This document shows, one piece after another, positions 29,137 through 45,235 of a stretch of 64,000 nucleotides of DNA (positions are counted from its first letter, which is position 1; every line of letters begins with the position of its first letter). The stretch comes from Chloroflexota bacterium (GTDB lineage Bacteria; Chloroflexota; Anaerolineae; Aggregatilineales; Aggregatilineaceae): positions 47,481 to 111,480 of the forward strand of contig JAAYCM010000129.1 in assembly GCA_012729765.1 (NCBI GenBank), written 5' to 3'. The position numbers and the translations under genes are program-made. The notes under the pieces are model-generated. The model saw only the letters and a program-made list of their open reading frames with translations, did not search any database and was not told the origin of the DNA.

Positions 29137-29222
29137 TGGTGCCCTGGAGAGGACTCGAACCTCCACGCCCGAACGGGCACAGGCCCTCAACCTGCCGCGT
29201 ATGCCAATTCCGCCACCAGGGC
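29137..29222 (-). tRNA. tRNA-Leu (anticodon GAG), long variable arm, CCA encoded
   Basis: Reverse complement: GCCCTGGTGGCGGAATTGGCATACGCGGCAGGTTGAGGGCCTGTGCCCGTTCGGGCGTGGAGGTTCGAGTCCTCTCCAGGGCACCA. Anticodon loop TTGAGGG. T-loop GGTTCGAGTCC. Confidence 0.9.
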
Positions 29223-29346
29223 ATCGCTGTGAGTGACATTATACACGCGCAAAATCAGATGTCAATGGTGGCGGGGCGCCCGCTGGCTGCGTACAATCAA
29301 CACGCTGGTGATTGGCTTGAAGCCGCTTGATACAGGATAGGGAAAG

Positions 29347-30363: not shown

Positions 30364-30419
30364 GCTTAGGGGCGATGGTGGCCTCTACAGTCCTAAGCGT
30401 ACGAGAAGGAAGCACAAAA

Positions 30420-31676
30420 ATGGAGCTTATGCGCAACGGCTTTCCCAGGGTTGTCATCACAGGCATTGGGGCGGTCACGCCTCTGGGGCGCTTTCCGGCC
30501 CTGATCGAGAAGCTCAAGCGGGGCGAGTCAGGGATTCGCCGCATCCAGAGTTTTGACCCGTCCACGCTGGAAGTGCAGATCGCGGGCGAAGTCGTTGACT
30601 TCGATCCGACCGAGTACATCGAGCCGAAGGAAGCGCGCCGTATGGGGCGTCCCGCGCAGCTAGCCGTTACGGCGGCGCTGGATGCGCTCAAGGACGCCGG
30701 GCTGACGCTCGCCGACCTGGAACCGATCCACGAGCGGGTAGCGGTGGACTTTGGCTCCTCGCTTGGCGGACACGATCTGGCCCAACAGGCGTCCTACGGC
30801 TATCGCTCGCGCGGGCGGCGCCCCGGTCCATTCTCGCTGATCCAGTCACTGCCCAACATCCCGGCGCATTATGTCAGCCGGGTGACAGGCGCGCTGGGGC
30901 CGCTGGTCTGCATCTCGACCGCCTGCGCCACCGGCACACACAGCATCGGGGACGGGTTCAATCTGGTGCGCTATGGCCGCGCCGACGTGGTCTTTACGGG
31001 CGGCGTCGAAGCGATGATCCTTGACTACGCGTTGGCCGGGTTTATCTCGATGACGGCACTGGCGACCGGCTACAATGACAATCCGGGTGAGGCGAGCCGG
31101 CCTTTCGATCTGAATCGCAACGGCTTCGTTTTTGGCGAGGGCGGCGGTGTGCTGATTCTGGAAACAATGGAGCGTGCTATCAAGCGCGGGGCGCGGATCT
31201 ATGCCGAGGTGCTCGGCATGTCGTCTTCATCCGATGCGTTCCATGTCGCTGCGCTCGATCCGGACGGTAGCGGCGCCGCGCGCGCGATGAGGTGGGCAGT
31301 CGAGGACGCGAGGCTAAACCCTGAAGACATCGACTATGTGAACGCGCACGGCACTTCGACCAAAGCGAACGACGCGGTCGAAACGCGCGCGATCAAGACC
31401 GTGTTTGGCGAGCACGCCTATAACATGGTCGTGAACTCGACCAAGAGCATGATCGGTCATCTGCTCGGTGGGGCAGGGGCAGTCGAAGCCATCGCGACGA
31501 TCATGGCGCTCTACGAGCAGATTCTGCATCCCACCATCAACTACGAGACGCCCGATCCGGAATGCGATCTGGATTACGTACCGAATGAGGCGCGTGACGC
31601 CAAGCTGCGGTACGCGATCTCGAACAGCTTTGGGCTGGGTGGGCAGAATGCGTGTATTGTGCTGGGAGCCGTCTAG
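30420..31676 (+). CDS. fabF: 3-oxoacyl-[ACP] synthase II
   Basis: KAS II motifs: RVVITGIGAVTPLG, active-site Cys in ISTACATGTHSIG, NAHGTSTKANDA, KSMIGHLLGGAG. Start chosen at ATG 30420 (GAAGGAAG Shine-Dalgarno upstream) rather than the track start at 30375. Confidence 0.93.
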   Translation: MELMRNGFPRVVITGIGAVTPLGRFPALIEKLKRGESGIRRIQSFDPSTLEVQIAGEVVDFDPTEYIEPKEARRMGRPAQLAVTAALDALKDAGLTLADLEPIHERVAVDFGSSLGGHDLAQQASYGYRSRGRRPGPFSLIQSLPNIPAHYVSRVTGALGPLVCISTACATGTHSIGDGFNLVRYGRADVVFTGGVEAMILDYALAGFISMTALATGYNDNPGEASRPFDLNRNGFVFGEGGGVLILETMERAIKRGARIYAEVLGMSSSSDAFHVAALDPDGSGAARAMRWAVEDARLNPEDIDYVNAHGTSTKANDAVETRAIKTVFGEHAYNMVVNSTKSMIGHLLGGAGAVEAIATIMALYEQILHPTINYETPDPECDLDYVPNEARDAKLRYAISNSFGLGGQNACIVLGAV

Positions 31677-31729
31677 GACGGTTTACAGTCACACAACATG
31701 AAGAAAAAAGCAGGCCAGGCTGGCCGCTG

Positions 31730-32539
31730 CTAGGAAAGCGCGGCCAAACTGGCCTGTTCCTGTGCCTGGATCTGCTTGAGACGGCTGTTGGCCTGATTGC
31801 AGAGATTCCGGCCACCAGCATTCAGCCAGTCGTCCAGTGCAGGGCTGGTATCCATCCCGGCGATGGCTTCAGCATAGATGGCCGAGCCCCAACGATAGTA
31901 GCGGCGTGTCTCGGAGTGCCAGGTTTCCCACCCGCGATTGATCACACCATGCCCGCCGTTGTAGCCGGCGAGCGCTAACCCGGCGTGCCCGCCAGAGCGC
32001 TGCAGCCCGCCGAGCAGATAATCCAGCCCGCGCCGGGCGTTGGTCTGGACGTCGAGCATATCCTCACCCGGCAGGAAGTGGAACGGCATAACCTGGAACA
32101 GGCCCTGTGCGCCGGACGGCGACGATACCATTGGATCGCCGCAGCTCTCGATCTGGATCACGGTCGCGATCAGATTTGGATCGACCTGGTATACGACCGC
32201 CCAGGCCCGGATCAGGTCGCCCCAATACTGGACTTCGGGCGTGAAGACGGGTGAAAGCGGCGACAGAGCAGCCTCAGTTCCCAGGGGGCCGTTGACGGCA
32301 TATCCATAGGTGCCGCTTCTGCTACCTGCCGACAAATCCTGCACGATGATGCTCAGAGGGGTGTCGGCCAGAATATCGTCCAATGCACCGAGTCGAAATG
32401 CCAGCCCCAGGACCAACAGGATGATGCCCAACAAGGCAATACGGTTGCGCTTACGAAAGATGCGCTGAAGGCGGCCAGACTGCCGCTTCTCCGGCTTGGC
32501 TTCGGTTGCTGTGGGTTGTGGGTTAAGACGTTTCGCCAT
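31730..32539 (-). CDS. Membrane-anchored lytic transglycosylase (SLT domain)
   Basis: 269 aa. N-terminal basic segment plus TM helix (IALLGIILLVLGLAF). SLT catalytic region IQIESCGDPMVSSPSGAQGLFQVMPFHF ... AGYNGG. Confidence 0.85.
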   Translation of the reverse strand: MAKRLNPQPTATEAKPEKRQSGRLQRIFRKRNRIALLGIILLVLGLAFRLGALDDILADTPLSIIVQDLSAGSRSGTYGYAVNGPLGTEAALSPLSPVFTPEVQYWGDLIRAWAVVYQVDPNLIATVIQIESCGDPMVSSPSGAQGLFQVMPFHFLPGEDMLDVQTNARRGLDYLLGGLQRSGGHAGLALAGYNGGHGVINRGWETWHSETRRYYRWGSAIYAEAIAGMDTSPALDDWLNAGGRNLCNQANSRLKQIQAQEQASLAALS

Positions 32540-32802
32540 GTTCCAATACGCGCTAGAACAAATGTTCCGTACGGTGTCTAATAAAGCATATCAGGTTCAG
32601 AGTTAAGAGTCAATATGGCAACGATAAAGATTCACAAGAATTTTAAAGAAATTCCCAAAAAGGTAAACGTAAGCCAGGCTTTAGGAATTAGCTGAAAATA
32701 TCACCGCCGCATCTGGGGTCAGATCGGTGGTTGGCGCGTATAATTTCAAGTAACTATACGGAGTATTTCATCCTCGGTTTCACATTCGCAGGCGGATAGC
32801 GC

Positions 32803-34059
32803 GTGGCAGTCTATTTGGATGCGGTCGATCGGTTTCTGGCGCTGGGCGATTTACAGCGCGCGGGGGCGCTGCTGGCGCGGCTGCTGCGTGCGTCGGGCGT
32901 CTCGGATGCTGAGCGGGCGCAATTGCTGGCGCGGCGCGCCCGGATGCGCCTGCTGGCCGAAAAACCCGATGATGCGCTGGAAGACCTGCGCGTGTGCGGC
33001 ACGCTGGACCCGGCGGTGATCGATACCCCGCCGCTGCTAGAGCTGGCCGGTGATACCTACTTTGCGCGCTTCGAGCTGGCCCCGGTCGGCTTTGCCGATC
33101 GCGCCGACGCTGAGCAGGCGATGGCATGTTATAACCGGCTGATTACCTTTGCTCCCGATTACGACAATCTGGGGTGGGTGATCTACCAGAAAGGCAGAAT
33201 CCTGCTGAGCGCCGGGACGGCTGATCAGGCAGCGGCTTTATTCGAGCAGGCGCTTGAGAAGTCAGGACAGGTGGCGGCGCTGCCCGCGCTGTGCTATGAG
33301 CGGCTGGGCTTCATCGAGTTGTTTGAGCGGCGCAATGCTGCTCTTGCGCTGGAATACTTCGCGCGGGCAGTCGAGGTCTATCCAGCGGGCGAAAACGCGG
33401 GCTGGCTGGTGCAGCTTCATATTCTGCGCAGCCGTGCCTTTCGCGAGCAGCGGCTCTATCACGCTGCGCTCACTGCCGCCCGACAGGCGCTCTCGACTAT
33501 CGATACGACCGCGCCGGATTACCGCCGTGCGCTGCCCGAAGCACATCTGGCCGTTGGCGAGGCGCTGGCCGCGATTGAGGCGCGTGAGCCCGAAGCGATC
33601 GATCACCTGGTTCAGTTCCTGCAGCTCAGCAAACGCCCGCTGGGGGTCGATGTCACGTGGAGCCGCGTCCACGAGACAATTGGCGAACTGTCGTTCCGGC
33701 TGGGCCGCTACGAGTTGGCTGCCGAAGCCTACCAGGCGGCGCTCAGTTTCAACCCGTTTCACCCGCTCGAAATGCACGTGCGCTACCAGATCGCACGCTG
33801 CTACTACCGCCTGCAAAATTACCAGCGCACGATCGAGACGCTGGAAGCCTTGCAGGCCGCCGCGGCAGCCGAAGGGGATCTGGTGCACGATTATCGCGTC
33901 TATCACCTGCTCGGTAATGCCTGCTACGCATTGGAGCGGTACAGCCAGGCCGTCGCGGCTTACCACCAGGCGCTGCTGTTGGCCCCGGTTGGGGCCGCGC
34001 AGTTGGATCAGATTCGTGCCTACCTGCGCTACGCGGAAGATTTGAGTACGCGGGCCTGA
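32803..34059 (+). CDS. TPR-repeat protein
   Basis: 418 aa, GTG start. Repeated helical A..Y..AL...P motifs throughout (e.g. AYQAALSFNPFHP, AYHQALLLAP). Confidence 0.7.
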   Translation: MAVYLDAVDRFLALGDLQRAGALLARLLRASGVSDAERAQLLARRARMRLLAEKPDDALEDLRVCGTLDPAVIDTPPLLELAGDTYFARFELAPVGFADRADAEQAMACYNRLITFAPDYDNLGWVIYQKGRILLSAGTADQAAALFEQALEKSGQVAALPALCYERLGFIELFERRNAALALEYFARAVEVYPAGENAGWLVQLHILRSRAFREQRLYHAALTAARQALSTIDTTAPDYRRALPEAHLAVGEALAAIEAREPEAIDHLVQFLQLSKRPLGVDVTWSRVHETIGELSFRLGRYELAAEAYQAALSFNPFHPLEMHVRYQIARCYYRLQNYQRTIETLEALQAAAAAEGDLVHDYRVYHLLGNACYALERYSQAVAAYHQALLLAPVGAAQLDQIRAYLRYAEDLSTRA

Positions 34060-34069
34060 GCGACTGCGC

Positions 34070-34098
34070 TGGACAACCTCACGCCGCTTCGCTACAAT
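34070..34098 (+). promoter_or_regulatory. Sigma70-like promoter candidate for trmFO
   Basis: TGGACA (34070..34075), 17-nt spacer, TACAAT (34093..34098). Confidence 0.45.
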
Positions 34099-34161
34099 GC
34101 CATACAGAGGCCCTCGCGGCCTGTTTTCGTTGTTTCAAGGGGCAGAGAGAAACCGTAGAAA

Positions 34162-35511
34162 ATGGCGTTCAATAAAACAGATCAGCCGGTGAAGGTAATC
34201 GGCGGTGGGCTGGCCGGGTCGGAAGCGGCCTGGCAGATCGCGCAGCGCGGGATTCCGGTGCTGCTGTACGAGATGCGCCCCCTTCAATCGACACCGGCGC
34301 ACCAGACCGCGTGGCTGGCCGAGCTGGTATGCAGTAATTCGCTGGGGTCCGATCTGCCGGATCGCGCGCCGGGCGTGCTCAAGGCCGAGATGCGACGGCT
34401 TGATTCACTGCTGCTGGCGTGTGCCAAGGCGGCGGCGGTTCCGGCGGGCGGCGCACTGGCGGTTGATCGTGAAGCGTTCGCGCAGCAGGTCACGGACGCC
34501 ATCGGCCAGCATCCCCTGATCACCCTGGTGCGCGAAGAAGTCCGGCATATCCCTGACGGCCCAACCGTGATCGCCACCGGCCCATTGACCGCTGACGCGC
34601 TGGCAAAGGAAATCGCCGGGCTGGTGGGCGAGGAGTACCTGTACTTCTACGACGCGATTGCGCCGATGGTTGCCGCCGACTCGATCGATATGTCAATCGC
34701 CTTCCGTGCCAGCCGCTATGGGCGCGGTGAGGACGAGACCGGTGATTACATCAACTGCCCGATAACCCGCGAGGAGTATGAGCGGTTCGTGGCGGCGCTG
34801 CGCGAGGCCGAGCTGATCACGCTGCACGACTTCGAGCGCGAGAATCCGCAGTTCTTCGAGGGTTGCCTGCCGGTCGAGCAGCTCGCGGCGCGCGGTGAGC
34901 AATCGCTGGCCTTCGGGCCGCTGCGCCCGGTGGGGTTGAAAGATCCGCGCACCGGCCAGCGCCCCTATGCGGTCGTTCAGCTTCGGCAGGATAACCTGGC
35001 GGGGACACTGTATAACCTGGTCGGGTTTCAGACCAATCTGCGCTATGGCGAGCAGAAGCGGGTATTCAGCCTGATCCCCGGCCTGGAACACGCCGAGTTT
35101 GTGCGCTACGGCCAGATGCACCGCAATACATTCCTGAACTCCCCGCTGTATCTGCGCCCCACGCTCCAGTTCCACCAGCGGGATAATCTGCTCTTTGCCG
35201 GGCAGATCACCGGCGTCGAGGGGTACGTGGGCAATATCGGGACGGGGCTGCTGGCCGGGATCAACGCTGCTAATCTGATCCAGGACCGGCCCCTGTGGGT
35301 GCTGCCGCCGACCACGATGCTCGGCGCACTGTGTCATTATGTCACTCATGCCGAGCCGGGTGATTTCCAGCCGATGAAGGCCAACTTCGGCATTCTGCCC
35401 GCGTTGGATCACCCGCCGAAGGGTAAGCGCGAGCGCCAGCGGGCTTATGCCGAACGCGCCGCCGCCGCTCTGGAAAGCTTCCTGGCCGAGCACGCGGTTG
35501 TATCAGGCTGA
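34162..35511 (+). CDS. trmFO: Methylenetetrahydrofolate--tRNA-(uracil-5-)-methyltransferase TrmFO
   Basis: 449 aa. FAD-binding [19 protein letters not shown], then LVCSNSLG and [14 protein letters not shown], typical of TrmFO/Gid. Confidence 0.95.
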
Positions 35512-35625
35512 TCCTGTTCCGGTTTGCCAGCGTAGATTGGTGCTTGGGGCTATAATTCGTGTCAGGCTGGATGACTGCGGCCCCGGCAAAACCTCACGTA
35601 TGGAAAGAGGTGAGCAATAAACGAG

Positions 35626-36951
35626 TTGACGCAAATACGAGATGCACGGGCGCTGCTGATCGGCGTAGAGCTGCGCGGCAGCCGTCCCGTATTGAGTGCT
35701 GAGGATTCTCTGGACGAGCTTGCGCTGCTGGCCCACACAGCAGGTGTTACCGTTCAGGATCGGGTGGTACAGCGCGTTGGGCGGATTGACCCCGCGACAT
35801 TTATCGGGCCGGGCAAGCTGTCCGAGCTGGCTGAAGCTATCCCGGAACAGCAGGTGAACATGGTGATCTTCGACGACGAACTGTCACCCCGTCACCAGCG
35901 CGAGTTGGAGAAGGTGTTTGGCGAGAATATCCAGGTGCTCGATCGTTCCGCGCTGATCCTCGATATCTTTGCACAGCATGCCCAGACTCGTGAGGGTGCG
36001 CTGCAGGTCGAGCTGGCACAGTATGAGTACCGCCTGCCGCGTCTGACCCGCCAGTGGACCCACCTGGCGCGCCAGGCGGGTGGCGGCGCGGCGCGCGGCG
36101 GGGCAGGGGGCGTTGGCCTGCGCGGACCCGGTGAAACGCAGCTTGAAGTCGACCGGCGCGAAATCCGGCGGCGGGTGGCACGGCTCAAGCAGGAGCTAGA
36201 ATCCGTGCGCGCCCACCGGCAGCGCCACCGTGCACAGCGTCAGCGAGCCGGTTTGCCGACTGTGGCGCTGGTGGGCTATACCAACGCGGGTAAGTCCACT
36301 CTGCTCAACGCGCTCTCGGGCGCGGATGTCTACGTGGCCGATCAGCTCTTTGCGACGCTTGATCCGACGGTGCGCCGGATCCGGCTGCCAAGCGGACGCG
36401 CCGCGCTGCTCTCGGACACGGTCGGCTTTATTCAAAAGCTGCCGGTGACGCTGGTGGCGGCGTTTCGCGCCACACTTGAAGAGGTGGTCGAGGCCGATCT
36501 GCTGCTGCACGTGGTCGATGCCAGCCACCCGCGCGCCTGGGACCAGATCGATATTGTCGAGGATACGCTGGCCGAGATTGACGCCGACCGCGTGCCCAAG
36601 ATTCTGGTTCTCAACAAAATTGATCGGGGCGAGCCGCCGCAGCCCGAAGAAGACTTCCGGGCGTTGGGCTATCAGGAGATCGTGCGCATTTCAGCCTTGC
36701 ATGGGACTGGCCTGGACGATCTGCTGGCGGCTATCGATCGCGCCCGCTTCGCCCTGATGATCGATATCGACCTGCTCATTCCGTATAACCAGGGCGAACT
36801 GCTGGCCGAAATCCACGAGGTTGGGACCGTGGAGCGCGAGGCGCATCAGGCAGAAGGGGTGCAGGTCAAAGCGGCGGTGCCGGTGTGGCTGGCGGGCCGC
36901 CTGGAACAACTCTTGGGCTTGCGTGATGATGAGGAGCAAGAAACGGAGTAG
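35626..36951 (+). CDS. hflX: GTPase HflX
   Basis: 441 aa, TTG start per the track. HflX N-domain (ALLIGVEL...DSLDELALLAHTAGV), glycine-rich GGGAARGGAGGVGLRGPGETQLEVDRR. G1 GYTNAGKSTL, G3 DTVGF, G4 NKID. Confidence 0.93.
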   Translation: MTQIRDARALLIGVELRGSRPVLSAEDSLDELALLAHTAGVTVQDRVVQRVGRIDPATFIGPGKLSELAEAIPEQQVNMVIFDDELSPRHQRELEKVFGENIQVLDRSALILDIFAQHAQTREGALQVELAQYEYRLPRLTRQWTHLARQAGGGAARGGAGGVGLRGPGETQLEVDRREIRRRVARLKQELESVRAHRQRHRAQRQRAGLPTVALVGYTNAGKSTLLNALSGADVYVADQLFATLDPTVRRIRLPSGRAALLSDTVGFIQKLPVTLVAAFRATLEEVVEADLLLHVVDASHPRAWDQIDIVEDTLAEIDADRVPKILVLNKIDRGEPPQPEEDFRALGYQEIVRISALHGTGLDDLLAAIDRARFALMIDIDLLIPYNQGELLAEIHEVGTVEREAHQAEGVQVKAAVPVWLAGRLEQLLGLRDDEEQETE

Positions 36952-36954
36952 GCT

Positions 36955-37341
36955 GTGCGCCGCGTGATCGCTGCTCTCACAAAGGTTTTGTTAGCACCAT
37001 TTCGCTTGCTGCTGCTGTTGATCGTGGCCCCGCTGGCGTTCGTCTCGCGCCCGGTCGGCACGCGGGTCGATTCGTCTCCTCGGATCAGCAATGTGATCAA
37101 CCAGTTGTCATCGTCGATGGCCACCCAGCGCGGCCTGCTGCTGATGGTCGGCACGGTGCTGCTGATCGTCAGCCTGGTGATGCACGGCGTGATTCTGGTC
37201 CTGATGGTTTCAACCGACAGCTTCGACCAGAATCTCTACTGGCTGTGCATCCCCTTTACGCTACTGCATCTGGGTGTGCTGGCTGGCTTCACCGGGGCGA
37301 TGCTGGCGACGCCGTTGGGGCAGGGCTATAAAGACAAGTAG
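36955..37341 (+). CDS. Small hypothetical membrane protein (128 aa, 3-4 predicted TM segments)
   Basis: GTG start 3 nt after the hflX stop. Hydrophobic segments LLLLLIVAPLAF, LLLMVGTVLLIVSLVMHGVILVLMV and LCIPFTLLHLGVLAGFTGAML. Confidence 0.5.
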   Translation: MRRVIAALTKVLLAPFRLLLLLIVAPLAFVSRPVGTRVDSSPRISNVINQLSSSMATQRGLLLMVGTVLLIVSLVMHGVILVLMVSTDSFDQNLYWLCIPFTLLHLGVLAGFTGAMLATPLGQGYKDK

Positions 37342-37371
37342 TGTGATCCGTTTTTTTACCGTTTAACCGGG

Positions 37372-37408
37372 AAAACCGCCGCTAAACACGTATTTAGTGG
37401 CGGTTTTT
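37372..37408. terminator. Bidirectional rho-independent terminator between the convergent hflX operon and the integrase
   Basis: 13-bp stem (one G-U pair): AAAACCGCCGCTA (37372..37384) / TAGTGGCGGTTTT (37395..37407), with a 10-nt loop. An A-run lies 5' and a T-run 3', so it reads as hairpin plus U-tract on both strands. Confidence 0.7.
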
Positions 37409-37453
37409 AGCTGTTGAAATATATATTATAATAGATTAGTATAGTAAATTCTC

Positions 37454-38935
37454 TCACATAAAATCGTCTGGATCAGGCAGGGGCGTGCTTTTGGCCGCGT
37501 CATCCACGCGCAGCGGGTCAGTGCGAGCATAATAGGCGCGGGTCGTCTCAACTGAACGGTGGCCGAGATAGTCCTGCACCACGTCCAGTGGGTGCCCGGC
37601 GTTGATCAACTGTGTGGCGCGCCAGTGCCGGAAGTCGTGCGGTGTGATCTGGCGCAGGCCCAGGGCGCGTGCGGCGCGCTGTACGACCCGCCACGCCACG
37701 ACCCGGCTCATCCGCTGGCCGTCGTAGCGGGGATCGTGGCTGACGAAGAGCGGCACATCGCCGCTGGTCGAGCCGCGCAGATTTGCGCCGCGCGCCTGGA
37801 TGTAGACCCGGATTGCGGGCAGCGAGTCGAAGAAGCGCAGATTGTAGCTGTGGCCGCCTTTGCCCGTGACCTCGACGCGCAGCACTTCCTGCCGGTTCAG
37901 GTAGCGATCGGGGAAATCGTGCAGGTTCAGGCTCAATACCTCGCTGATACGCCCGCCGGTTTCGGCCAGGGCGTGCAGCAGCGCCCGATTGCGCAGCCGG
38001 GCCAACTCCCAGCGCGCGACGCGCTCATCATCAGCACCAGCCTTGCGCAGCGACGGCGGGAGCGGCTGGGTGTCATAATAGTAGATCACTTCCTCGATGT
38101 GATCGGGTGGCTGCAGCGGGCCGCTGCGTTTGGGCCGTGCGCGCAGCTCGTCCCGTACAATCCGCCGGGCTTTTGCCAGCGGAAAGCGTGCCGGCAGCCA
38201 GCCGTGATCGTCCAGAAACTGGAACCAGCTTTGTACGCCAGCTAACCGTAGCTCGACGGTAGTCGGCTTGTAGGGGCGGCCATCGGCAGTATTATCGCTG
38301 GGTGAGAGCAGCCACTCGGCAAAATGCAGAAAAATCGGCGCGTCGTTGGGACCAAGCGCGGCAAGCGGAATGGCATCCGGCACGACGTAGGGCCGCTGCT
38401 GGATCGGCAGACGGCGTGTGCCGGTGCGATCACCTAGAAACATCAGGAATAACTCGATGGAACGCTCGTAGGCGGCGACGGTATGCGCCGATTTGAGCGT
38501 GGCGCGGTCCAGGTAGGCGTCACGCGCATCGCCCAGCGTCAGATCGCCGTCGGGTGTAGGCAGTCGTTGCAGCAGGTGTTTGAGTTGGCGCTCCACGTCG
38601 AGTGTCAGGTCTTCGACGTCCATCCCATCCAGATACCAGGGCAGGGTTGGCGTGTGGCGAATCAGCACCGGGATGAGCAGCCGATCATACTGCCGGGCCG
38701 CTGCGCAGCGTTTCATGACGCGGTCTGATGTCGCACTGTCCGGGCTGACCAGCACCATCACGGCCAGTGCCGTCTGGATGGTGCCCTCAATCTCTTTATC
38801 CCACTTTGCGCCGCCGTGCTCAGGAGTGTCGCTCTCGACGACAGTGAGGTAGCCCTGGGCTTCGATCTGCCGTTGGAGCCAGTGTGCGAACTCCAGATCG
38901 CTTGCTGTGCAACTCAGAAACACAGTTTGGGGCAT
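37454..38935 (-). CDS. Tyrosine recombinase/integrase with an N-terminal TIR-like domain (fusion)
   Basis: 493 aa. N-terminal ~125 aa: VFLSCTASDLEFAHWLQRQIEAQGY...ALAVMVLVSPDSATS...LLIPVLI (TIR_2-like). Core-binding region TVAAYERSIELFLMFL. Catalytic residues: R in ETGGRISEVLSL, HDFRHWRAT (H-x-x-R), GHRSVETTRAYY (H and nucleophile Y). Confidence 0.85.
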   Translation of the reverse strand: MPQTVFLSCTASDLEFAHWLQRQIEAQGYLTVVESDTPEHGGAKWDKEIEGTIQTALAVMVLVSPDSATSDRVMKRCAAARQYDRLLIPVLIRHTPTLPWYLDGMDVEDLTLDVERQLKHLLQRLPTPDGDLTLGDARDAYLDRATLKSAHTVAAYERSIELFLMFLGDRTGTRRLPIQQRPYVVPDAIPLAALGPNDAPIFLHFAEWLLSPSDNTADGRPYKPTTVELRLAGVQSWFQFLDDHGWLPARFPLAKARRIVRDELRARPKRSGPLQPPDHIEEVIYYYDTQPLPPSLRKAGADDERVARWELARLRNRALLHALAETGGRISEVLSLNLHDFPDRYLNRQEVLRVEVTGKGGHSYNLRFFDSLPAIRVYIQARGANLRGSTSGDVPLFVSHDPRYDGQRMSRVVAWRVVQRAARALGLRQITPHDFRHWRATQLINAGHPLDVVQDYLGHRSVETTRAYYARTDPLRVDDAAKSTPLPDPDDFM

Positions 38936-39462
38936 CGCGCGTGTCCTTTTTGCCGTTGTATGTTACATAAGATTACCAAGTATAACATTTGTATCATTAT
39001 GTTAAACCTATATCGCAAAGGATGCAAATCGCGCAGCCCACCCTGATCCCTATATCCCACACCTGCACGCACAATAAGACGGGCGGGGTTTGTGCGCTTA
39101 GGGGCAAGCAGTTGGAGCCACCTGCACATGCAGCCCACCCGCCCGGCATTTTCCATCATGACTCGCTGCAGTCACACATTGCTTTGATCGTCGCACTGGA
39201 TCATCGCTTGCTGCGTTGTGTACTCGCTTGCAAGATCGCGTTGCATCATCTCCCCAGGCGCGCTTGTACTTAACGTCACAATCTTCGCGTCATATGTTAT
39301 TTTGTCCTTGCTTCCGACGGCTGTAGCGGGGTCATGCTGGCTCATTACAACATCCCTCGCCGATATCCCAAAAAACAAAATAAGCATTTGGCTAATTAAA
39401 TCAGTATAGATGAAGTAATAAATGTTCTAACTTCCTCTTATCTGAAATTCATATAGTGCGGC

Positions 39463-39558: not shown

Positions 39559-42500
39559 ATGCGCTCCTTTTTTGATGCTGTTACCCGATTCTCACTCCGT
39601 TTCCGTTGGATAACCCTCCTGATATCTGCGGTGCTGGTGGCTGTCGGAGTTTTTGCCGCCACACAGCTCAATATTGCGCTGATTCCGTCGGTAGACTTCC
39701 CTTCAACCTTTATCCTGGCACGCAGCCATGGTGGCACCAGCGGCGATCTGATGCTGCAGACCTATAGTATCCCGATCGAGCAGGCTGCCGACACGGTCGA
39801 AGGTGTGATCAACCACGAGTCCAGCACCACCACCGGCTTTGCTTTTCTGCAAATTCGCAACGAGTTCGGCCTGGACATGACCGATCTACGGGCCGAACTG
39901 CGCGCCGCGCTGGATACGGTCGAACTGCCGGTACGCACGCTCACGGCGCCTGAAGGGACATCCCCCGCCGAGATGATCGCCGCCCTGCCCCCGGATGTCG
40001 TGCTCTACTTGCAGGTGCGCTCGTTGGACGAGGGCATTAGCTTTCTGCCGCAGCTCAGCCGCGAGGTGTGGTTGAGTTTCTCACCGGAAGTACTTGGCGC
40101 GTTGCCGGAAGGCACGCTGGACGAGATCGACCCGATTCTTGCCGGCGAACTCCGCGTTAAGGCCGTTGGGGAACCACAGCCTTTGCCGGATCTGGCACAG
40201 ACCGAGCCACCGGGGCTGCCCGAAAGTTGGCAGGCCGACCGCTTCGAGACAGCCGCCGATCTGGCCGAACTGACCGGCGTCCGGACTATGGCGGAAATCC
40301 TGAACGCCTTCATGACCAGCGGCGAGATCGCCGGCCCGCTGATGTACGTCTCCGATCTCACCGAGGCCGATCTGGAATTGATCAAGGCCGTCTCCGAGAG
40401 CTGCCGCACGTTCAACCAGACCGAAAACGGCGATGGTGAGGACGCAGCCGAAGAAGCCGCGATATGCTCAATGCTGACCTACCTGGATGGTGACGCCCTG
40501 GCGGCGCTGATCACCCACTTCGATCTGGCAGACGGCGATCTGGCAGCAGCGTTGGGCCTGCCGGCTGACTACTTCGATCAGCTTGGGCAGGAAGACCGCA
40601 GCCAGCTTGCCACCGGCGTGATCGCTTCGCTGCTGAGCGACGAATCCGCCCCGCGCGATGTGCTGCTGCCGCCGGAATGGCGTCTGGAGCCGCCGCGACT
40701 GATCACCTTCAGCCTGGCCGATATCCCACTCGGTATCATCAGCATCAGCGCCGATGAATCAGAACTTTCGCGCGAAGAGCTGCGCCAGTTGGTCGAGAAC
40801 GAGGTCATTCCACAGCTTGAAGCGCTCGATGCGGTGGCCGACGTAGCCGCCCAGGGTGGTGAGCGCATCCGCCCCGATCTGCTCAATGCTGCGCTGGCAG
40901 CCGAAGGACTGGACGAGCGCATACCTGAAGATGAAGTTGCCAGCACTGCTGAAGCGGACACAGGCGAAGCGGATGCGATGGCGGAAGAACCCGCCGGAGA
41001 ATCGGAAGCAGCCCCTGTCCAGCGGGAAGAAGGTCCGGCGCTGCCGGCAAGCTGGCGTGCCTTTGCCACTTCACTGCCCGGCGTCGAAGAACTGGACACG
41101 GCTGATGACCTGCTCCAAATTCAAGGTATGCCCCCCTCTGCCCTGCTCAATCAGGCCGTGACGATGGCTGCCGAGAATGAGGCAGTCGCGATGTTTGTCA
41201 ATCGCGCTCTGACCGACCTCTCGCCTGAGGTGCTGCTCTATCTGGCCGAGCACGAGGAAGGCTTCTTTGATAACCTCGCGCTCGAAGTCCTGCAGGCGCT
41301 CGCACCGGAAACGCTCAGTGCCCTGCCGGATGACGTGCAGGAGCGCGCCAGCGCCGAGCCGGCTCCACCGCTAAGCGAATTCTGGCAGCGCCTGGGCCGC
41401 AAGCCGGAACTCGGCGGGGCAGGACTGACAACCGCCGCCGATCTGCTCGTGCTGGACGGCGGACCAGCCAGCGTGCTCAATCGCATCGTGATCGAGGCGC
41501 CGGACGTCGTGCGCTTCTATGCCGTCCAGTTAGTAAATTCGCTCTCGCCCGACGCGATCAGCTATCTGGCCGCCAATGACGCGGATTTCCTGGGCGATCT
41601 TGATCCCCTGGCCTACTGCTATTTTTCGGTTGAGGCGCTCAATCTTGAGGATGTGCGTGCCGTCTGGTCCGATCAAGATTGGGTCTGTGGCGAGACGCCG
41701 CTGCTCGACATCGCCGAGGGCCATGCCCCATCTGCCGTGCAGACATTGAACAGTGGGACGGAACAGGCCGAGGAACGCGTTCACGATCCTGATGCCCCGG
41801 CCCTGCCCGCCAGTTGGTCCGGAATCGCCAGCTTTGTCGGCGCACAGGAGTTGAACACCGCCGACGATCTATTCTATGCGACCGGCAGCAATGGGGAATA
41901 TCTCACCCCGTCGGCCCTGCTCAACAGCTTCGCCAGCCCCGACGGTGCGCCGTTTGTGCGCGCACTGACCGCCGCCCCGCTGCTGTATGTGGCCGACTGC
42001 GACCAGGGCCAGCTCTGTGAGAAAGGCTTCTTTGATAACCTCACCGACGAGCTGCTGCTCCTGCTCGCGGATGAAGCCGCCGCCGGATTGCCCGACTCTG
42101 TCCAGAGCCGGCGTGAAACAGCCCGGCGCGGTATCTACACGCCAGTTGACTCGGTCACGCGCACCAACGGCCAGAACAGCTTGCTCCTCAACATTGTCCA
42201 GGAAGGCGACGCGAATACCGTCTCGGCCTGGGGCGATGTGGAAGGGGTTTTGCACGATCTCGAAACACGCCATCCGGAGATTGATTTCGAGGTTGCCTTC
42301 GAGCAGGCAAGCTATATCGAGGAGTCAATCAACGGCGTTGCGCGCGAAGGTGGCCTGGGCGCGGTGATGGCCGTCATCGTGATCCTGATCTTCCTGCACT
42401 TCAGCATCCGCAGCACGCTGGTGACGGCGATCAGCATCCCGACATCGGTTGCGCTGGCGTTCATCCTGATGAAATGGGTGCCAGGCAACGTGCACGACCT

Positions 42501-44304
42501 GCTCTACCCGCTCAGCCAGGATGCCACCGGGGTCGCCGCCAGCATTCTGACCTTCATCCTGCGCCTGTTTCCGGAAGATGTCAGCCTCAATATCATGACG
42601 CTCTCCGGCCTGACGGTTGCGATTGGCCGCATCGTAGACGACTCCATCGTCGTGCTGGAAAACATCTACCGCAACATCCAGGCCGGCGAAAACCGGCGCG
42701 AGGCGATCCTGCACGGCACACGTGACGTGTCGGTGGCTATCTTCGCCGCGACAATCACGACGGTTGTTGTCTTCCTGCCGATTGGTCTGTTTGGCGGCGT
42801 GATCGGCGCGTTCTTCCTGCCATTTGGTCTGGCAGTCACGTATGCGCTGCTGTCATCGTTCGTGATCGCGATTACGGTTGTGCCGGTGTTGGCCTACCTG
42901 TTCATCACCAAAGAATCCCTGCCCGAAGAGCACCACAGCCGCATGGAAGATGTCTATCGCGGCGCGCTGCAGTGGGCGCTGGCGCATCGCTGGGTCATCA
43001 TCGCCGTTGCGACGATCACTTTCCTGGCCGGTATGTGGCTGCTCACCCAACTCCCGACCGCGTTCCTGCCAGCTTTTGGCGAGCCAAGCATCACGGTCAC
43101 CGTCAGCCTGCCCGGCGCGATCGATGGGCAGCCAACCACGATTGCCGTAACAGACGCTAAGGTCCGCCGTCTCGAAAACTATGTGCGTGATCTGGAAGGT
43201 GTGGAAACGATTCAGACGCAGGTTGGCGGCGGCGGTCAGGAGAGTGTGTTCGTTAGCTCGACCACAATCTCCCAGACTGAAGCGACACTGACCATTGGTG
43301 TCGAGGATGCCGACGCGCTGGAACGCCTGACGCCAGAGGTGCGGCGCGAAGCCGAGCGCATCTTCAACGATCTTGATCGTGATGGAACTCCCGATGAAAG
43401 CCAAACGAACGTCACCGTCTCCGGAGCGTCTCTCAGCGAGCAGGGATTCGGTGGGTTTGCTGTTGTGGTGAGTGGTGATCCCAAGGACCCGCCGCCCCTG
43501 GCCGAGCTTGAGCAGTACGACGAGCAGATCGTCGCCACGCTGGAGAGTATCGAGGGGATCACCAATGTCGAGAGCAGTCTGGGACTGGTTTCAGGCAGTG
43601 GGGGCGACGTCTCACAGACCTATATCCGCATTGATGGCATCCCGGCAGCACGCTATACCGCCGAGCTGGAAACCGAGGATACACTTGGCCTGACGCAGGA
43701 TGCAATTGCCGAGGTACGCAAGCTGGACCTGCCGGCGAACGTGGTTGTGAGCGAAGGCTTCGAATCGCAGCAGCAGACTGAGGGCTTCCAACAGACGTTC
43801 ATCTCGATGGGAATTGCCGTCGTGATCGTCTACTTCGTCATGCTGCTGACCTTCGGCTCGCTGGTACACCCCATCACCATCCTGTTCAGTCTGCCGCTGG
43901 CGGCGGTCGGCGCGGCGGTCGGGCTGGCCGTCACGGGCCGCGTCCTGGGGTTGTCCTCAGTCGTCGGCCTGCTGATGCTGGTTGGTATCGTCGTGACGAA
44001 CGCGATCGTGCTGATCGACCGGGTGCAGACCAATCGCAAGATGCGTGGGATGGGGGTTGAGCAGGCTTTGCTCGATGGGGGGACGACGCGGCTGCGTCCG
44101 ATCCTGATGACGGCGATCGCAACGATGGTCGCCCTACTGCCGTTAGCGATTGGGCTGTCCGAGGGCGCGATCATCGCCGCCGAGTTGGGCACGGTCGTGA
44201 TTGGCGGGCTGTTCAGCAGTACCCTGCTTACGCTGCTTGTCGTGCCAGTGGTCTACAGCCTGTTCGATCAGGCACAGCGAGCTGTCGCGCGCCGACTGCG
44301 TTAG
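39559..44304 (+). CDS. RND-superfamily efflux/export permease (AcrB/HAE-like) with a greatly expanded first extracytoplasmic loop
   Basis: 1581 aa. N-terminal TM1 and porter-like start (FFDAVTRFSLRFRWITLLISAVLVAVGVFAA...IPSVDFPS). TM2-6 begin near aa 927 (GGLGAVMAVIVILIFLHF). The second half has typical length (TM7 WVIIAVATITFLAGMWLL, TM8-12 from about aa 1414, ending TLLVVPVVYSLF). Confidence 0.9.
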   Translation: MRSFFDAVTRFSLRFRWITLLISAVLVAVGVFAATQLNIALIPSVDFPSTFILARSHGGTSGDLMLQTYSIPIEQAADTVEGVINHESSTTTGFAFLQIRNEFGLDMTDLRAELRAALDTVELPVRTLTAPEGTSPAEMIAALPPDVVLYLQVRSLDEGISFLPQLSREVWLSFSPEVLGALPEGTLDEIDPILAGELRVKAVGEPQPLPDLAQTEPPGLPESWQADRFETAADLAELTGVRTMAEILNAFMTSGEIAGPLMYVSDLTEADLELIKAVSESCRTFNQTENGDGEDAAEEAAICSMLTYLDGDALAALITHFDLADGDLAAALGLPADYFDQLGQEDRSQLATGVIASLLSDESAPRDVLLPPEWRLEPPRLITFSLADIPLGIISISADESELSREELRQLVENEVIPQLEALDAVADVAAQGGERIRPDLLNAALAAEGLDERIPEDEVASTAEADTGEADAMAEEPAGESEAAPVQREEGPALPASWRAFATSLPGVEELDTADDLLQIQGMPPSALLNQAVTMAAENEAVAMFVNRALTDLSPEVLLYLAEHEEGFFDNLALEVLQALAPETLSALPDDVQERASAEPAPPLSEFWQRLGRKPELGGAGLTTAADLLVLDGGPASVLNRIVIEAPDVVRFYAVQLVNSLSPDAISYLAANDADFLGDLDPLAYCYFSVEALNLEDVRAVWSDQDWVCGETPLLDIAEGHAPSAVQTLNSGTEQAEERVHDPDAPALPASWSGIASFVGAQELNTADDLFYATGSNGEYLTPSALLNSFASPDGAPFVRALTAAPLLYVADCDQGQLCEKGFFDNLTDELLLLLADEAAAGLPDSVQSRRETARRGIYTPVDSVTRTNGQNSLLLNIVQEGDANTVSAWGDVEGVLHDLETRHPEIDFEVAFEQASYIEESINGVAREGGLGAVMAVIVILIFLHFSIRSTLVTAISIPTSVALAFILMKWVPGNVHDLLYPLSQDATGVAASILTFILRLFPEDVSLNIMTLSGLTVAIGRIVDDSIVVLENIYRNIQAGENRREAILHGTRDVSVAIFAATITTVVVFLPIGLFGGVIGAFFLPFGLAVTYALLSSFVIAITVVPVLAYLFITKESLPEEHHSRMEDVYRGALQWALAHRWVIIAVATITFLAGMWLLTQLPTAFLPAFGEPSITVTVSLPGAIDGQPTTIAVTDAKVRRLENYVRDLEGVETIQTQVGGGGQESVFVSSTTISQTEATLTIGVEDADALERLTPEVRREAERIFNDLDRDGTPDESQTNVTVSGASLSEQGFGGFAVVVSGDPKDPPPLAELEQYDEQIVATLESIEGITNVESSLGLVSGSGGDVSQTYIRIDGIPAARYTAELETEDTLGLTQDAIAEVRKLDLPANVVVSEGFESQQQTEGFQQTFISMGIAVVIVYFVMLLTFGSLVHPITILFSLPLAAVGAAVGLAVTGRVLGLSSVVGLLMLVGIVVTNAIVLIDRVQTNRKMRGMGVEQALLDGGTTRLRPILMTAIATMVALLPLAIGLSEGAIIAAELGTVVIGGLFSSTLLTLLVVPVVYSLFDQAQRAVARRLR
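39940..42130 (+). repeat. Acidic internal repeat modules within RND loop 1 (protein-level repeats)
   Basis: At least four copies of a module with LP(A/E)SW...(T/E)(A/T)ADL...PSALLN...LSP(E/D)(V/A).YL...FFDNL..E.L..L....LP(D/E). Examples: PGLPESWQADRFETAADLAELTG; GPALPASWRAFATSLPGVEELDTADDLLQ...LSPEVLLYLAEHEEGFFDNLALEVLQAL; LSEFWQRLG...LTTAADLLV...LSPDAISYLAANDADFLGDL; APALPASWSGIASFVGAQELNTADDLF...GFFDNLTDELLLLLADEAAAGLPDSV. Confidence 0.7.
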
Positions 44305-44337
44305 CACCCTGCCCTACCGCATTTCCAACCGCTCTAA

Positions 44338-44379
44338 AACAGAGGCGCGGAACCGAGCGATTCGCCCCGCGCCTCTGTT
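44338..44379 (-). terminator. Strong hairpin; reads as an intrinsic terminator on the minus strand and possibly also stops the plus-strand RND transcript
   Basis: Perfect 13-bp inverted repeat AACAGAGGCGCGG (44338..44350) / CCGCGCCTCTGTT (44367..44379) with a 16-nt loop. On the minus strand the stem is followed by TTTTAGAG. On the plus strand it is followed by CGAC, with no U-tract. Confidence 0.5.
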
Positions 44380-44664
44380 CGACTATCACACATATCCCAC
44401 ACTACAGCCTGAGGCCAGGTACTTTTACCGGAGACGAAGTGGGATAAAAAATCTGAAGAGCGCTGAGGATGAAAGTAGCTGGGGTCAGGCTGTAGCGCCT
44501 GAATGACTATACGAACTATAATCACGCTATCTGTACAGTTCGTGCGTTTGGTGTATCGCTGGGGGACAGCCCAGTCGCGCGCTGGCAAACCGGGCTTGCG
44601 CTGCACCTGGTGCTGGAAGTGGATTTGATACGGGGTATGTCATTTGCTTATTGACTACACGAAG

Positions 44665-45225
44665 TCATTCGGAATCCCGCATGGGTGCTTGCCACGTGCT
44701 CTCGCTGCGTCCCTCGTCTCGATTTCCCACACGCGCCGCCACAAACAGCCAGTCCGACAGCCGGTTGAGGTAGTGCAGCGTATGCAGGTTCACGTCCTCG
44801 GATTCTTGCAGCGCCACCAGCCAGCGCTCAGCCCGGCGGCAGACCGTGCGCGCCTGGTGCAGAAACGCGCCTGCCATCCCGCCGCCCGGCAGGATGAAGT
44901 TCTTCAGCGCGGGCAGCCCGCTTTCCCACACATCGATCTCGTGCTCCAGCCGCGTTACCATCGCCTCGGAGACACGCACAATCCATTTAGCCTCGGCATC
45001 CAGCGGCGTCGCAAGATCGGCCCCCACCACAAACAGGTCATCCTGAACCCGCACCAGTGCTTCATGCAGCTCGGACGTCAGATTTTGAGCAACTACCAGC
45101 CCCAGTATGGCGTTTAACTCATCCACCGTCCCGTAAGCATGCAGGCGGAGATGCGCCTTGCTGACTCGCCCACCGGCAAACAGGCTCGTCTCGCCCTCGT
45201 CGCCGGTCTTTGTGTAAATCTTCAT
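44665..45225 (-). CDS. PduO-type ATP:cob(I)alamin adenosyltransferase
   Basis: MKIYTKTGDEGETSLFAGGRVSKAHLRLHAYGTVDELNAILG and LPGG...AFLHQARTVCRRAER are typical of the PduO/MMAB family. ATG 45225 preferred over GTG 45231. Confidence 0.9.
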   Translation of the reverse strand: MKIYTKTGDEGETSLFAGGRVSKAHLRLHAYGTVDELNAILGLVVAQNLTSELHEALVRVQDDLFVVGADLATPLDAEAKWIVRVSEAMVTRLEHEIDVWESGLPALKNFILPGGGMAGAFLHQARTVCRRAERWLVALQESEDVNLHTLHYLNRLSDWLFVAARVGNRDEGRSESTWQAPMRDSE

Positions 45226-45235
45226 GACCACGCCT

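Follow-up and report, generated by a model that had tools for sequence, protein, structure and literature searches.

A gene in a 64,000-nucleotide stretch of DNA from a Chloroflexota bacterium (hereafter the window) very probably encodes an Xer-type recombinase that resolves chromosome dimers in Anaerolineae-class Chloroflexota and has its own dif-like site at the replication terminus. Gene and site appear to form a single-recombinase Xer/dif module organised like XerS/difSL, where "single" describes the locus. The recombinase carries an N-terminal TIR domain, and the explanation of the whole that fits best, an Xer/dif module with an accessory TIR, is considered likely. The placement at the terminus is based on local GC skew and KOPS words at the loci, and the uniqueness of the site on the window and on 20-kb loci. 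The features are listed in Table 1.

Table 1. Features of the TIR-recombinase locus; positions are those of the window.
Feature	Position	Strand	Basis or remark
Gene of predicted Xer-type tyrosine recombinase with N-terminal TIR	37454..38935	-	ORF, 493 aa + stop, ATG start
TIR domain, residues 1-125	38561..38935	-	TIR_2, TIR profile, Foldseek; R72...R76 replace W-x-x-x-E
Enlarged helical core-binding (SAM-like) region, residues 133-300	38036..38539	-	Weak Phage_int_SAM_1, all-helical AF2 model
Catalytic domain, residues 301-493	37457..38035	-	Phage_integrase 312-472, XerA/XerD alignments, invariant columns
dif-like core site, 28 bp, 11-6-11	38980..39007	.	Gene orientation GTTTAACATAA-TGATAC-AAATGTTATAC
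Parts of the dif-like site	Left arm 38997-39007, central 6 bp 38991-38996, right arm 38980-38990		
Putative third half-site, inverted copy of the left arm	38962..38972	.	Gene orientation TCTTATGTAAC; locus alignment
Nine GGGCAGGG words, all left of the site	69, 6488, 12309, 19198, 20468, 31471, 36101, 37318, 38639 (span 69..38646)	+	
Seven KOPS-type words (CCCTNCCC on +), all right of the site	39983, 41801, 42917, 44307, 48357, 53402, 55326 (span 39983..55333)	-	
Hairpin of a bidirectional intrinsic terminator, between the recombinase gene and the small-protein gene convergent with it	37371..37408	.	Folding

The fusion of a TIR domain to a tyrosine recombinase, as described in the original prediction, is real. 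Pfam TIR_2 (PF13676) matched residues 5–121 with 53.5 bits against a cut-off of 28 (model positions 1–121 of 122), and Phage_integrase (PF00589) matched residues 312–472 with 89.4 bits against a cut-off of 27.1. The AlphaFold2 (AF2) model of the 493-aa protein had a mean pLDDT of 87, with values of about 90–97 across the TIR. In Foldseek, the first ~140 residues retrieved the TIR domains of SPARTA, SARM1 and Hydra TRR-2, and the recombinase body retrieved XerA, Tn1549 Int and IntI4, with XerA 5hxy as the top match. The reading as one uninterrupted ORF also held. An identical protein exists in NCBI, and the same uninterrupted architecture was found in more than 70 cluster representatives (49–68% identity) from independent assemblies, so the ORF is no assembly artefact. 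The expected SAM-like segment is seen as an all-helical stretch in the AF2 model (residues 133–300), with only a weak match to Phage_int_SAM_1 (residues 141–169), and the expected catalytic set is complete: R329 (in GGRISE), K359, H433 and R436 (in HDFRHWR), H459 and Y468. These R-K-H-R-H-Y columns are invariant or nearly so across 76 full-length homologues and align to those of XerD and XerA. A Pfam search of the protein revealed no arm-binding (AB) N-terminal domain of the kind found in mobile-element integrases.

The best solved relatives by sequence were all Xer proteins, namely XerA 4a8e (E = 2e-12), XerD 1a0p, XerA 5hxy and XerH 5jjv (E = 1.7e-6). The scores against the NCBIfam models for XerC (TIGR02224, 96.2 bits against a cut-off of 335), XerD (TIGR02225, 89.7 against 330), XerS (NF003462, 63.4 against 267) and archaeal XerA (NF040815, 80.4 against 220) were all below the cut-off. 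By these comparisons, the protein is Xer-like and belongs to no named Xer equivalog.

The 28-bp site lies 45–72 bp upstream of the recombinase ATG and is unique in the 64-kb window (allowing up to 3 mismatches) and in each 20-kb locus. Its inner right arm resembles the XerD arm of E. coli, TTATGTTAAAT. A unique imperfect palindrome, TGTAACATAA-N6-AAATGTTATA, was found 60–70 bp before the ATG in 26/26 reference-genome loci with enough upstream sequence (5/5 in an earlier set), and it is present in further metagenome loci as well. An exact search for ATTATGTTAAA in other loci gave no matches because other genomes use GTAACAT-type arms; the site became visible only after the loci had been aligned. 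The 11-6-11 arrangement is that of dif (Castillo 2017). What had been described as an orphan region is a non-coding stretch that holds a dif-like site on which skew and KOPS words converge.

In all of the 16 non-redundant loci with flanks of at least 8 kb, the GC skew changed from positive upstream to negative downstream of the site, and in 11 of them the cumulative skew maximum was found about 40–160 nt or less from it. Since the recombinase gene runs against the skew, the switch is no coding-strand effect. The second signal comes from GGGNAGGG, the FtsK-orienting KOPS of E. coli (PMC2680272, PMC3384302). In the pooled loci, words of the GGGNAGGG family pointed toward the site 175 times and away from it 10 times, and within genes directed away from the site the ratio was 45:0; G-rich words used as controls were far less polarised. 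GGGCAGGG was the most polarised among 4,723 tested 8-mers in the pooled loci (103:6, p = 4e-14). In the window alone, KOPS-type words were oriented 16:1 toward the site with a flip of polarity between 38639 and 39983, the single exception starting at 27249. In a distant clade without a TIR, another palindrome occupies this position, and skew and KOPS words behave there in the same way (66:7).

The gene order trmFO-hflX-small protein, with the recombinase gene convergent to it, is kept across MAGs of Anaerolineae, Aggregatilineaceae and Thermoflexus and was seen on contigs of 4.2, 1.9 and 1.7 Mb. One recombinase copy per MAG was counted in 29 species genomes. The neighbours of the gene are trmFO, hflX, fabF, plsX, SLT, an RND transporter and a two-component system, and its GC content (0.637 compared with 0.627 for the window) is host-like, as had been predicted. 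No defence partner genes of the TIR-based antiphage systems Thoeris (ThsA), SPARTA (APAZ with pAgo) or CBASS/Pycsar (a cyclase) were found in the protein or operon at the locus. The fusion is common to more than 70 orthologues, whereas the RND gene adjoining it in the window, which had been put forward together with the fusion as potentially conserved, is absent from most orthologous loci and is no conserved neighbour. The gene had also been described as bracketed by a strong bidirectional terminator and by the only long low-GC stretch of the window. The former was confirmed by a hairpin with a 16-bp stem and A and U runs at its sides (dG = -26.6 kcal/mol, z = -5.2, with 0 of 200 shuffles folding as well); the latter was not, as three other low-GC stretches are present at 32351–32850, 52001–52500 and 55801–56250. 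A terminator scanner gave no prediction, and the hairpin was seen by direct folding. A search for ncRNA with Rfam yielded two tRNAs in the whole window and nothing in the upstream gaps of two loci (L001 and L002). When ORFs of 30 aa or more from 30 upstream regions were all compared with one another by blastp, no new small gene emerged in the gap, only the C-terminus of the flanking Cob_adeno_trans gene and its antisense shadows. Judged by its synteny, the recombinase gene is a vertically inherited core gene and neither a mobile-element nor a defence gene.

Two other readings of the locus can be weighed at this point. The gene could belong to an integrated mobile element (prophage, ICE or genomic island) as its integrase, or could encode an invertase acting as a switch on the RND gene, as its membership of Pfam Phage_integrase and its position beside a low-GC non-coding stretch and a non-conserved RND gene might suggest. 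This is hardly credible, since both flanks of the gene are kept in distant genomes, no tRNA, att duplication or element genes are found near it, its GC content matches the host, the RND gene is missing from most orthologous loci, and the site coincides with the convergence of skew and KOPS words. A repeat search of positions 37000–40000 yielded the terminator hairpin and short pairs attributable to chance but no convincing inverted repeats with a promoter segment between them, and no second copy of the site bounding a variable segment was seen. The alternative that the palindrome is only an autoregulatory operator, with the true dif elsewhere in the terminus region and possibly served by other Xer proteins, draws on the position of the site, which would separate any promoter upstream from the ATG, so that a protein bound to it would probably affect transcription. 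It is nevertheless very improbable in view of the canonical 11-6-11 recombination core, the skew maximum within about 40–160 nt of the site in 11 of 16 loci and the flip of KOPS polarity across the site. The different palindrome of the distant TIR-less clade, with its unchanged position and signals, also argues against it and fits a site that co-evolves with the recombinase as its substrate.

An Xer/dif module of this kind can be compared with several known systems. In streptococci and lactococci, xerS directly adjoins difSL, and the two make up one module where the skew shifts (PMC5357621, PMC3025954). Likewise, the recombinase gene studied here lies beside its site at the GC-skew shift point, guidance by FtsK/KOPS is predicted from the motifs, and the body without the TIR is about 365 aa long, compared with 356 aa for XerS. 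It differs from XerS/difSL in the central region (6 bp instead of 11), in the TIR and the third half-site and in belonging to another phylum. Archaeal XerA is the closest solved relative by sequence and fold and is also a single recombinase with a 28-bp 11-6-11 site; however, XerA has no TIR and was reported to act independently of FtsK, whereas KOPS words converge on the site here. The XerC/XerD-dif-FtsK system of E. coli and most bacteria has the same 11-6-11 design of a site at the terminus, with GGGNAGGG converging on it, but it uses two paralogues where one gene is found here, and the linkage of gene and site, the enlarged core-binding region and the TIR also set the present system apart. 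XerH/difH of Helicobacter and Campylobacter and XerL/dif of the Legionellales are likewise lineage-specific single Xer systems, recognised by a unique palindrome of low GC content close to the terminus, although the sequence similarity is only distant (see XerH 5jjv above) and neither carries a TIR.

The TIR domain resembles those of SPARTA (short pAgo TIR-APAZ), SARM1, MyD88 and TRR-2 in fold and in the TIR_2 signature. A search of the PDB with the single TIR sequence returned one spurious match only. A 14-sequence profile was needed, and with this profile TRR-2, MyD88, TIR-STING, SPARTA and SARM1 were matched down to E = 1.4e-6, the best matches being the non-enzymatic adaptor TIRs TRR-2 and MyD88. 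PADLOC recognised only the TIR part of the protein (residues 3–125), by short-pAgo TIR-APAZ models (E = 2e-9). As in SPARTA, the TIR is N-terminal on a protein that would tetramerise on nucleic acid, but in contrast to SPARTA, the W and E of the NADase motif are absent from the window protein, and there is neither APAZ nor a pAgo partner. The motif reads S70-D-R72-V-M-K-R76-C, with Arg at the Trp and Glu positions of W-x-x-x-E in helix C, which bears out the earlier observation that the NADase glutamate is missing. Since both positions are Arg, the TIR of the window protein is most likely a non-enzymatic protein-protein module, and the earlier suggestion of a scaffold rather than an enzyme fits these data. 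Among the 76 members, W and E are both present in 15, E alone in 21 and neither in 40, the catalytic Glu column thus being Glu in 36. The W-x-x-x-E-intact TIRs form the best-conserved TIR cluster, in which 13 of the 16 members are WE.

The TIR evolves under purifying selection. Its dN/dS was 0.10, 0.14 and 0.25 in three close orthologue pairs, Glu-less lineages included, compared with 0.014–0.077 for the recombinase body; true start codons were used, and dS was unsaturated in these three pairs only. Because Glu-less TIRs are under purifying selection as well, the conserved role of the domain is presumably not catalysis. The structural motifs of TIR_2 are nearly invariant (D13, A17, L24, S64, P65, A80, P99 and D109). 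TIR-less orthologues start at a conserved T-[FL]-G-x-A-R-D motif (residues 133–139); no remnant of a decayed TIR was detected at their loci by tblastn, and in-frame stops occur 5–20 codons upstream. A search of the representative library for TIR fusions on other recombinases found the TIR confined to this one family. From neighbour-joining trees only, with unrooted parsimony counts and a tree rooted on the distant clade, the TIR is read as a lineage-specific add-on with a single gain in this Xer family and at least three losses. Other N-terminal extensions are seen in distant relatives of greater length, one of them with a weak, sub-threshold match to GIY-YIG. As the original prediction had stated, no characterised TIR-recombinase was found in the searchable literature.

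The third half-site lies 12 nt past the 22-nt conserved core motif and 7 nt past the 11-nt right arm, leaving 26 nt to the ATG, and it starts 18–20 bp beyond the inner right arm (start to start). Its consensus, tTCTTATGTtaCA, was present at a fixed offset of 10–12 nt in 22 of 23 non-redundant TIR-bearing loci (up to 2 mismatches) and in only 1 of 13 TIR-less loci. Counted for Fisher's test, 18 loci with a TIR had the third arm and four did not, against one and 12 of those without a TIR (p = 4e-5). The inner right arm had a mean of 2.65 mismatches in TIR-bearing loci and 0.62 in TIR-less loci (p = 1e-4). One discordant locus, L004, has no TIR, yet its third arm is kept and its inner arm is degenerate. 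The association between TIR and third arm amounts to about four concordant events, the two having been gained together once and lost together two or three times, and as a single deletion of the TIR-coding 5' end could also take the adjacent third arm, joint loss may reflect linkage and not function. The third arm contains a -10-like TATGTT 20–30 nt before the ATG and may be a -10 promoter element instead. Together, the third half-site and the degenerate inner arm suggest that the TIR helps to assemble or regulate the recombinase complex. Extra recombinase-binding motifs beside the core are known from the arm sites of lambda Int, the accessory sequences of cer/psi and the direct-repeat motifs of TnpI of Tn4430, and the third arm, like these, could impose order or selectivity on synapsis. 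The extra motif of the present locus differs from them in that it copies a core half-site and has no distinct arm-type sequence. In some tyrosine recombinases this task involves an additional N-terminal domain, whereas the extra domain here is a TIR and no DNA-binding AB domain, and the third arm is a putative binding site.

Two explanations of the TIR compete with a role in the recombinase complex. If the TIR were an enzymatic or signalling immune module, the protein would be an antiphage or anti-mobile-element effector in which DNA-dependent tetramerisation, for example on foreign dif-like sites of Xer-exploiting elements, assembles an NADase as in SPARTA. The closest defence relatives of the TIR are indeed the short-pAgo TIR-APAZ proteins found by PADLOC and the SPARTA structures, and the motif is intact in 15 of 76 members and in the best-conserved TIR cluster. 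The divergence of TIR and body is also decoupled, some pairs being 89–91% identical in the body and 22–25% in the TIR, a pattern resembling that of a conflict-type domain. This explanation is improbable all the same, as Arg occupies the two motif positions of the window protein, 40 of 76 members are without both residues, Glu-less TIRs remain under purifying selection, and the TIR was lost at least three times while the gene stayed. The antiphage framing of the original prediction is not upheld either: PADLOC matched the TIR part only, and the gene is a syntenic core gene that sits at the terminus among housekeeping genes and has no defence partners. A second explanation, which is less remote though still rather unlikely, holds that the TIR is a functionless passenger decaying toward loss and that the third arm is a mere promoter or operator of the longer gene form. 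It accounts for the erosion of the catalytic motif in most members, for the repeated loss of the entire TIR, for its much lower conservation (median identity among members about 26–35%, compared with 65–80% for the body), for the -10-like TATGTT, and for L004, which works with the third arm and without a TIR. Against it stand the dN/dS of 0.10–0.25 in three close pairs, the fully kept fold with pLDDT above 90 and the nearly invariant structural motifs. Furthermore, the third arm repeats the recombinase left arm exactly in inverted orientation and is no generic promoter box, and the quality of the inner arm differs between the forms with and without a TIR.

In the proposed mechanism, FtsK-type translocation, guided by the converging GGGNAGGG, would pair the dif copies of a dimeric chromosome, as the polarity of the motifs implies. 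Recombinase protomers would bind the two 11-bp arms flanking the 6-bp central region, and strand exchange would proceed via the R-K-H-R-H-Y active site, as expected from the complete catalytic set and the Xer homology. TIR-TIR contacts might then aid the assembly of protomers on a three-arm site whose left arm is strong and whose inner right arm is degenerate, with an additional strong half-site beyond it. The effect of such contacts would be to tune synapsis or to autoregulate the gene; its RBS lies just past the third arm. This assembly role for TIR and third arm is the preferred reading of the domain, and a tentative one.

To date, dif systems in Chloroflexota have been predicted only for Dehalococcoides. 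The present locus would add a previously undescribed single-recombinase Xer/dif module in Anaerolineae and related Chloroflexota, and with the sequence and position of the site and the KOPS word now given, the terminus becomes mappable in hundreds of MAGs. It is also, as far as could be found, the first TIR fused to a core DNA-maintenance enzyme and not to an immune or adaptor protein. Motif-intact, motif-dead and TIR-deleted orthologues occupy one genomic slot, a natural experiment that makes the role of a TIR for a DNA recombinase testable; the candidate roles are control of oligomerisation, autoregulation and NAD+ chemistry. A speculative and unlikely extension is that a housekeeping Xer recruited an immune-type TIR as a control layer over dimer resolution, with TIR-TIR coupling on a three-arm dif and, in the ~20% of orthologues with an intact W-x-x-x-E, cleavage of NAD+ or signalling driven by synapsis. 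If true, recombination at the terminus, or its hijacking by dif-integrating elements, would be tied to NAD+ metabolism in a SPARTA-like manner. Should the TIR prove irrelevant, the locus would still define a clean new Xer lineage, and it would caution against reading all bacterial TIRs as antiphage defence.

The fusion of a TIR domain to a tyrosine recombinase, which the original prediction had read from the sequence, proved to be real. Pfam placed TIR_2 at full length on residues 5–121 (53.5 bits against a cut-off of 28) and the Phage_integrase catalytic domain on residues 312–472 (89.4 bits), with a weak match to a SAM-like segment at residues 141–169. An AlphaFold2 model built on 76 homologues has a mean pLDDT of 87, and about 90–97 in the TIR domain. 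Using Foldseek, the first ~140 residues were matched to the TIR domains of SPARTA TIR-APAZ, SARM1 and Hydra TRR-2, and the body to XerA, the Tn1549 integrase and IntI4; among solved structures, archaeal XerA and XerD are the nearest relatives. The conserved catalytic set is present (R329, K359, H433, R436, H459 and Y468). A chimeric assembly, a possibility raised at the outset, is excluded: an identical protein is found in NCBI, and the same uninterrupted architecture occurs in more than 70 cluster representatives from independent assemblies, at 49–68% identity.

Features of the recombinase locus and its surroundings in the window
Feature	Position	Strand	Description
PPC-domain protein	19949-27595		2,548 aa; PPC (pre-peptidase C-terminal) and galactose-binding-like domains
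KOPS-type word	27249-27256		only one in the window directed away from the site; within the giant PPC-domain gene
Predicted membrane protein	36955-37341		128-133 aa; 3' of hflX, convergent on the recombinase
TIR-recombinase ORF	37454-38935	-	493 codons
Third half-site	38962-38972		tTCTTATGTtaCA-type, inverse of the left arm
dif-like core site	38980-39007		GTTTAACATAA-TGATAC-AAATGTTATAC (gene orientation)
CRP/FNR-type palindrome	39265-39280	-	TGTGACGTTAAGTACA; consensus TGTGAAATTAnnCACA
RND (AcrB-family) transporter	39559-44304		1,581 aa, ~500 aa above typical length

The fusion is unusual, but its setting is one of housekeeping and not of defence. The recombinase slot is identical on four contigs (4.18, 1.93 and 1.72 Mb, and 83 kb), where trmFO, hflX and a ~130-aa membrane protein are followed by the recombinase, convergent on them. 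The window keeps this order, and fabF, plsX, SLT and the giant PPC-domain protein lie further out. Screening a single genome from each species yielded 29 loci, each in a different MAG, from Anaerolineae, Anaerolineaceae, Aggregatilineaceae, Thermoflexus and Ardenticatenia, and the recombinase body is strongly constrained (dN/dS 0.014–0.077 in close pairs). The RND gene is no conserved neighbour of the recombinase; it looks like a lineage-specific insertion beside dif, since in 21 of 30 loci a Cob_adeno_trans homologue occupies the position upstream of dif. The RND protein has a long acidic insert (roughly residues 220–880). The bidirectional terminator predicted downstream of the recombinase is real, and the description of the upstream stretch as the sole low-GC region of the window was inaccurate.

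Other observations concern the same surroundings. The membrane protein is kept in every locus examined, TIR-bearing and TIR-less alike, and matched no Pfam family. The PPC-domain protein also lies near the terminus in related genomes. Between two orthologous loci, L001 and L002, the recombinase-hflX-trmFO-SLT block (about 9200–17100 in each) is inverted relative to its flanks, with a gene-free gap of ~800 bp at each end in L002; this would fit an inversion around the terminus.

Upstream of the recombinase, every locus has 620–840 bp of gene-free DNA. Alignment of five such regions revealed one strongly conserved block right before the start codon, TGTAACATAA-N6-AAATGTTATA, whose two partly symmetric arms of ~11 bp and 6-bp centre reproduce the layout of dif. 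The site is unique in the 64-kb window even at three mismatches; it is single and at constant spacing from the ATG in 26 of 26 reference loci with enough upstream sequence, and further metagenome loci also have it. At the corresponding position, a distant TIR-less clade (34–38% identity) carries another palindrome, AATGCAACTAA-N6-GTTAAGTTGCATT, as expected if recombinase and site co-evolve. In these loci (L059–L112, e.g., L066 with the site at 2225 and L072 at 587), the palindrome is a perfect Xer-type one, ~70 nt upstream of the gene. About 14 of 30 orthologous loci share the CRP/FNR-type palindrome, 240–330 nt on the upstream side of the dif-like site.

In the window, as in each of the first four loci, the cumulative GC skew reaches its maximum at the site. 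Among 16 non-redundant loci with flanks of at least 8 kb, the skew is positive upstream and negative downstream of the site in all 16, and in 11 the maximum lies no more than about 160 nt from it. This is not a coding-strand effect, since the recombinase gene itself runs against the skew. Polarity of short words served as an independent test: when the 4,723 8-mers in 564 kb of pooled flanks were ranked by polarity toward the site, GGGCAGGG came out on top (103:6, where base composition predicts 64%). The motif GGGNAGGG is the E. coli KOPS, which orients FtsK toward dif (PMC2680272, PMC3384302). Its family is polarized 175:10 toward the site in the pooled loci. Within genes whose transcription leads away from the site the ratio is 45:0, and between genes it is 20:3; G-rich control words were much less skewed. 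On the plus strand of the window, all nine copies lie left of the site, and seven complements lie right of it, the word at 27249 being the single exception; the flip is between 38639 and 39983. The polarity is 99:10 in TIR-bearing loci, 76:0 in TIR-less loci and 66:7 in the distant clade, where the skew switch is also present. The dif-like site is predicted to mark the replication terminus.

Taken together, the recombinase and its site very probably constitute a single-recombinase Xer/dif module, because the body is Xer-like with a full active site, the gene has single-copy core status, an 11-6-11 site is adjacent, and skew and KOPS converge on it. From sequence, we infer that such a module would perform recombination and dimer resolution in dependence on FtsK. 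The arrangement is that of xerS/difSL, in which a gene and its site make up a unit where the skew shifts. The protein belongs to no named Xer equivalog, scoring far under the NCBIfam cut-offs for XerC, XerD, XerS and XerA. That it is a mobile-element integrase, or an invertase, is contradicted by the synteny, by the terminus signals and by a repeat search over 37000–40000 that gave no convincing bracketing pair. It is highly improbable that the palindrome serves as an operator only, which would leave the convergence of skew and KOPS unexplained. The distant clade suggests that single-Xer modules with an adjacent dif form a much broader family.

The profile of the TIR domain matches true TIRs: TRR-2 and MyD88, both non-enzymatic adaptors, rank first, ahead of TIR-STING, SPARTA and SARM1. 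The NADase glutamate is indeed missing, as had been judged by eye: in S70-D-R72-V-M-K-R76-C, arginine occupies both the Trp and the Glu positions of W-x-x-x-E. Among the 76 members of the family alignment, the catalytic column holds Glu in 36 and the full motif is present in 15, while 40, including the window protein, have neither residue. PADLOC matched the TIR part alone, to short-pAgo TIR-APAZ models. For the window protein, with its dead motif and a core gene that has no partners, a part in defence or as an NADase is unlikely; for orthologues with an intact motif (WE-type), such a role is conceivable. That the TIR is purely vestigial is less likely, since the fold is retained and the three pairs without saturation (two of them lacking the Glu) gave dN/dS values of 0.10, 0.14 and 0.25, which argue that the domain is not in free decay. 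The WE-type TIRs form the best-conserved cluster; TIR divergence is otherwise uncoupled from that of the body, and some pairs have 89–91% identity in the body and 22–25% in the TIR (e.g., P0050 against P0060, P0062 and P0073 in alignment A2). These set a canonical W-x-x-x-E TIR against a strongly diverged type, and point to either episodic rapid divergence or domain replacement.

About one third of the orthologues (~370 aa) truly lack the TIR, with no remnant by tblastn and stop codons just upstream. A neighbour-joining tree rooted on the distant clade places a TIR-less pair at the base and, above it, one gain of the TIR with three or more losses nested within; bootstrapped parsimony gave 4–5 state changes. 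No TIR-bearing relatives outside this recombinase family were found in a library of 1.84 billion representatives.

TIR presence is associated with the architecture of the site. The inner right arm is degenerate in TIR-bearing loci (mean 2.65 mismatches, versus 0.62 in TIR-less ones), and an extra half-site, the exact inverse of the left arm, lies 10–12 nt past the 22-nt conserved core motif in 22 of 23 of them. TIR-less loci have a clean two-arm palindrome, with a third arm in one of 13 only (L004, a three-arm layout without TIR). The association (18 TIR-bearing loci with and 4 without the arm, 1 and 12 among the TIR-less; Fisher p = 4e-5, without phylogenetic correction) rests on about four concordant events, and a single deletion might take out the third arm along with the TIR-coding 5' end next to it. 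Tentatively, the TIR would help the protomers at the two right arms, inner and outer, to cooperate, or would mediate autoregulation, an option considered because the ribosome-binding site lies just past the third arm.

In the searchable literature, dif sites of Chloroflexi have been predicted for Dehalococcoides only, and neither the present system nor any TIR-tyrosine recombinase fusion is described. Xer/dif modules for dimer resolution are known as such; what is new is the putative variant described here, in which the recombinase has an added TIR domain and the site has three arms. Because motif-intact, motif-dead and TIR-deleted orthologues all occur in nature, what the TIR domain does can be tested directly.
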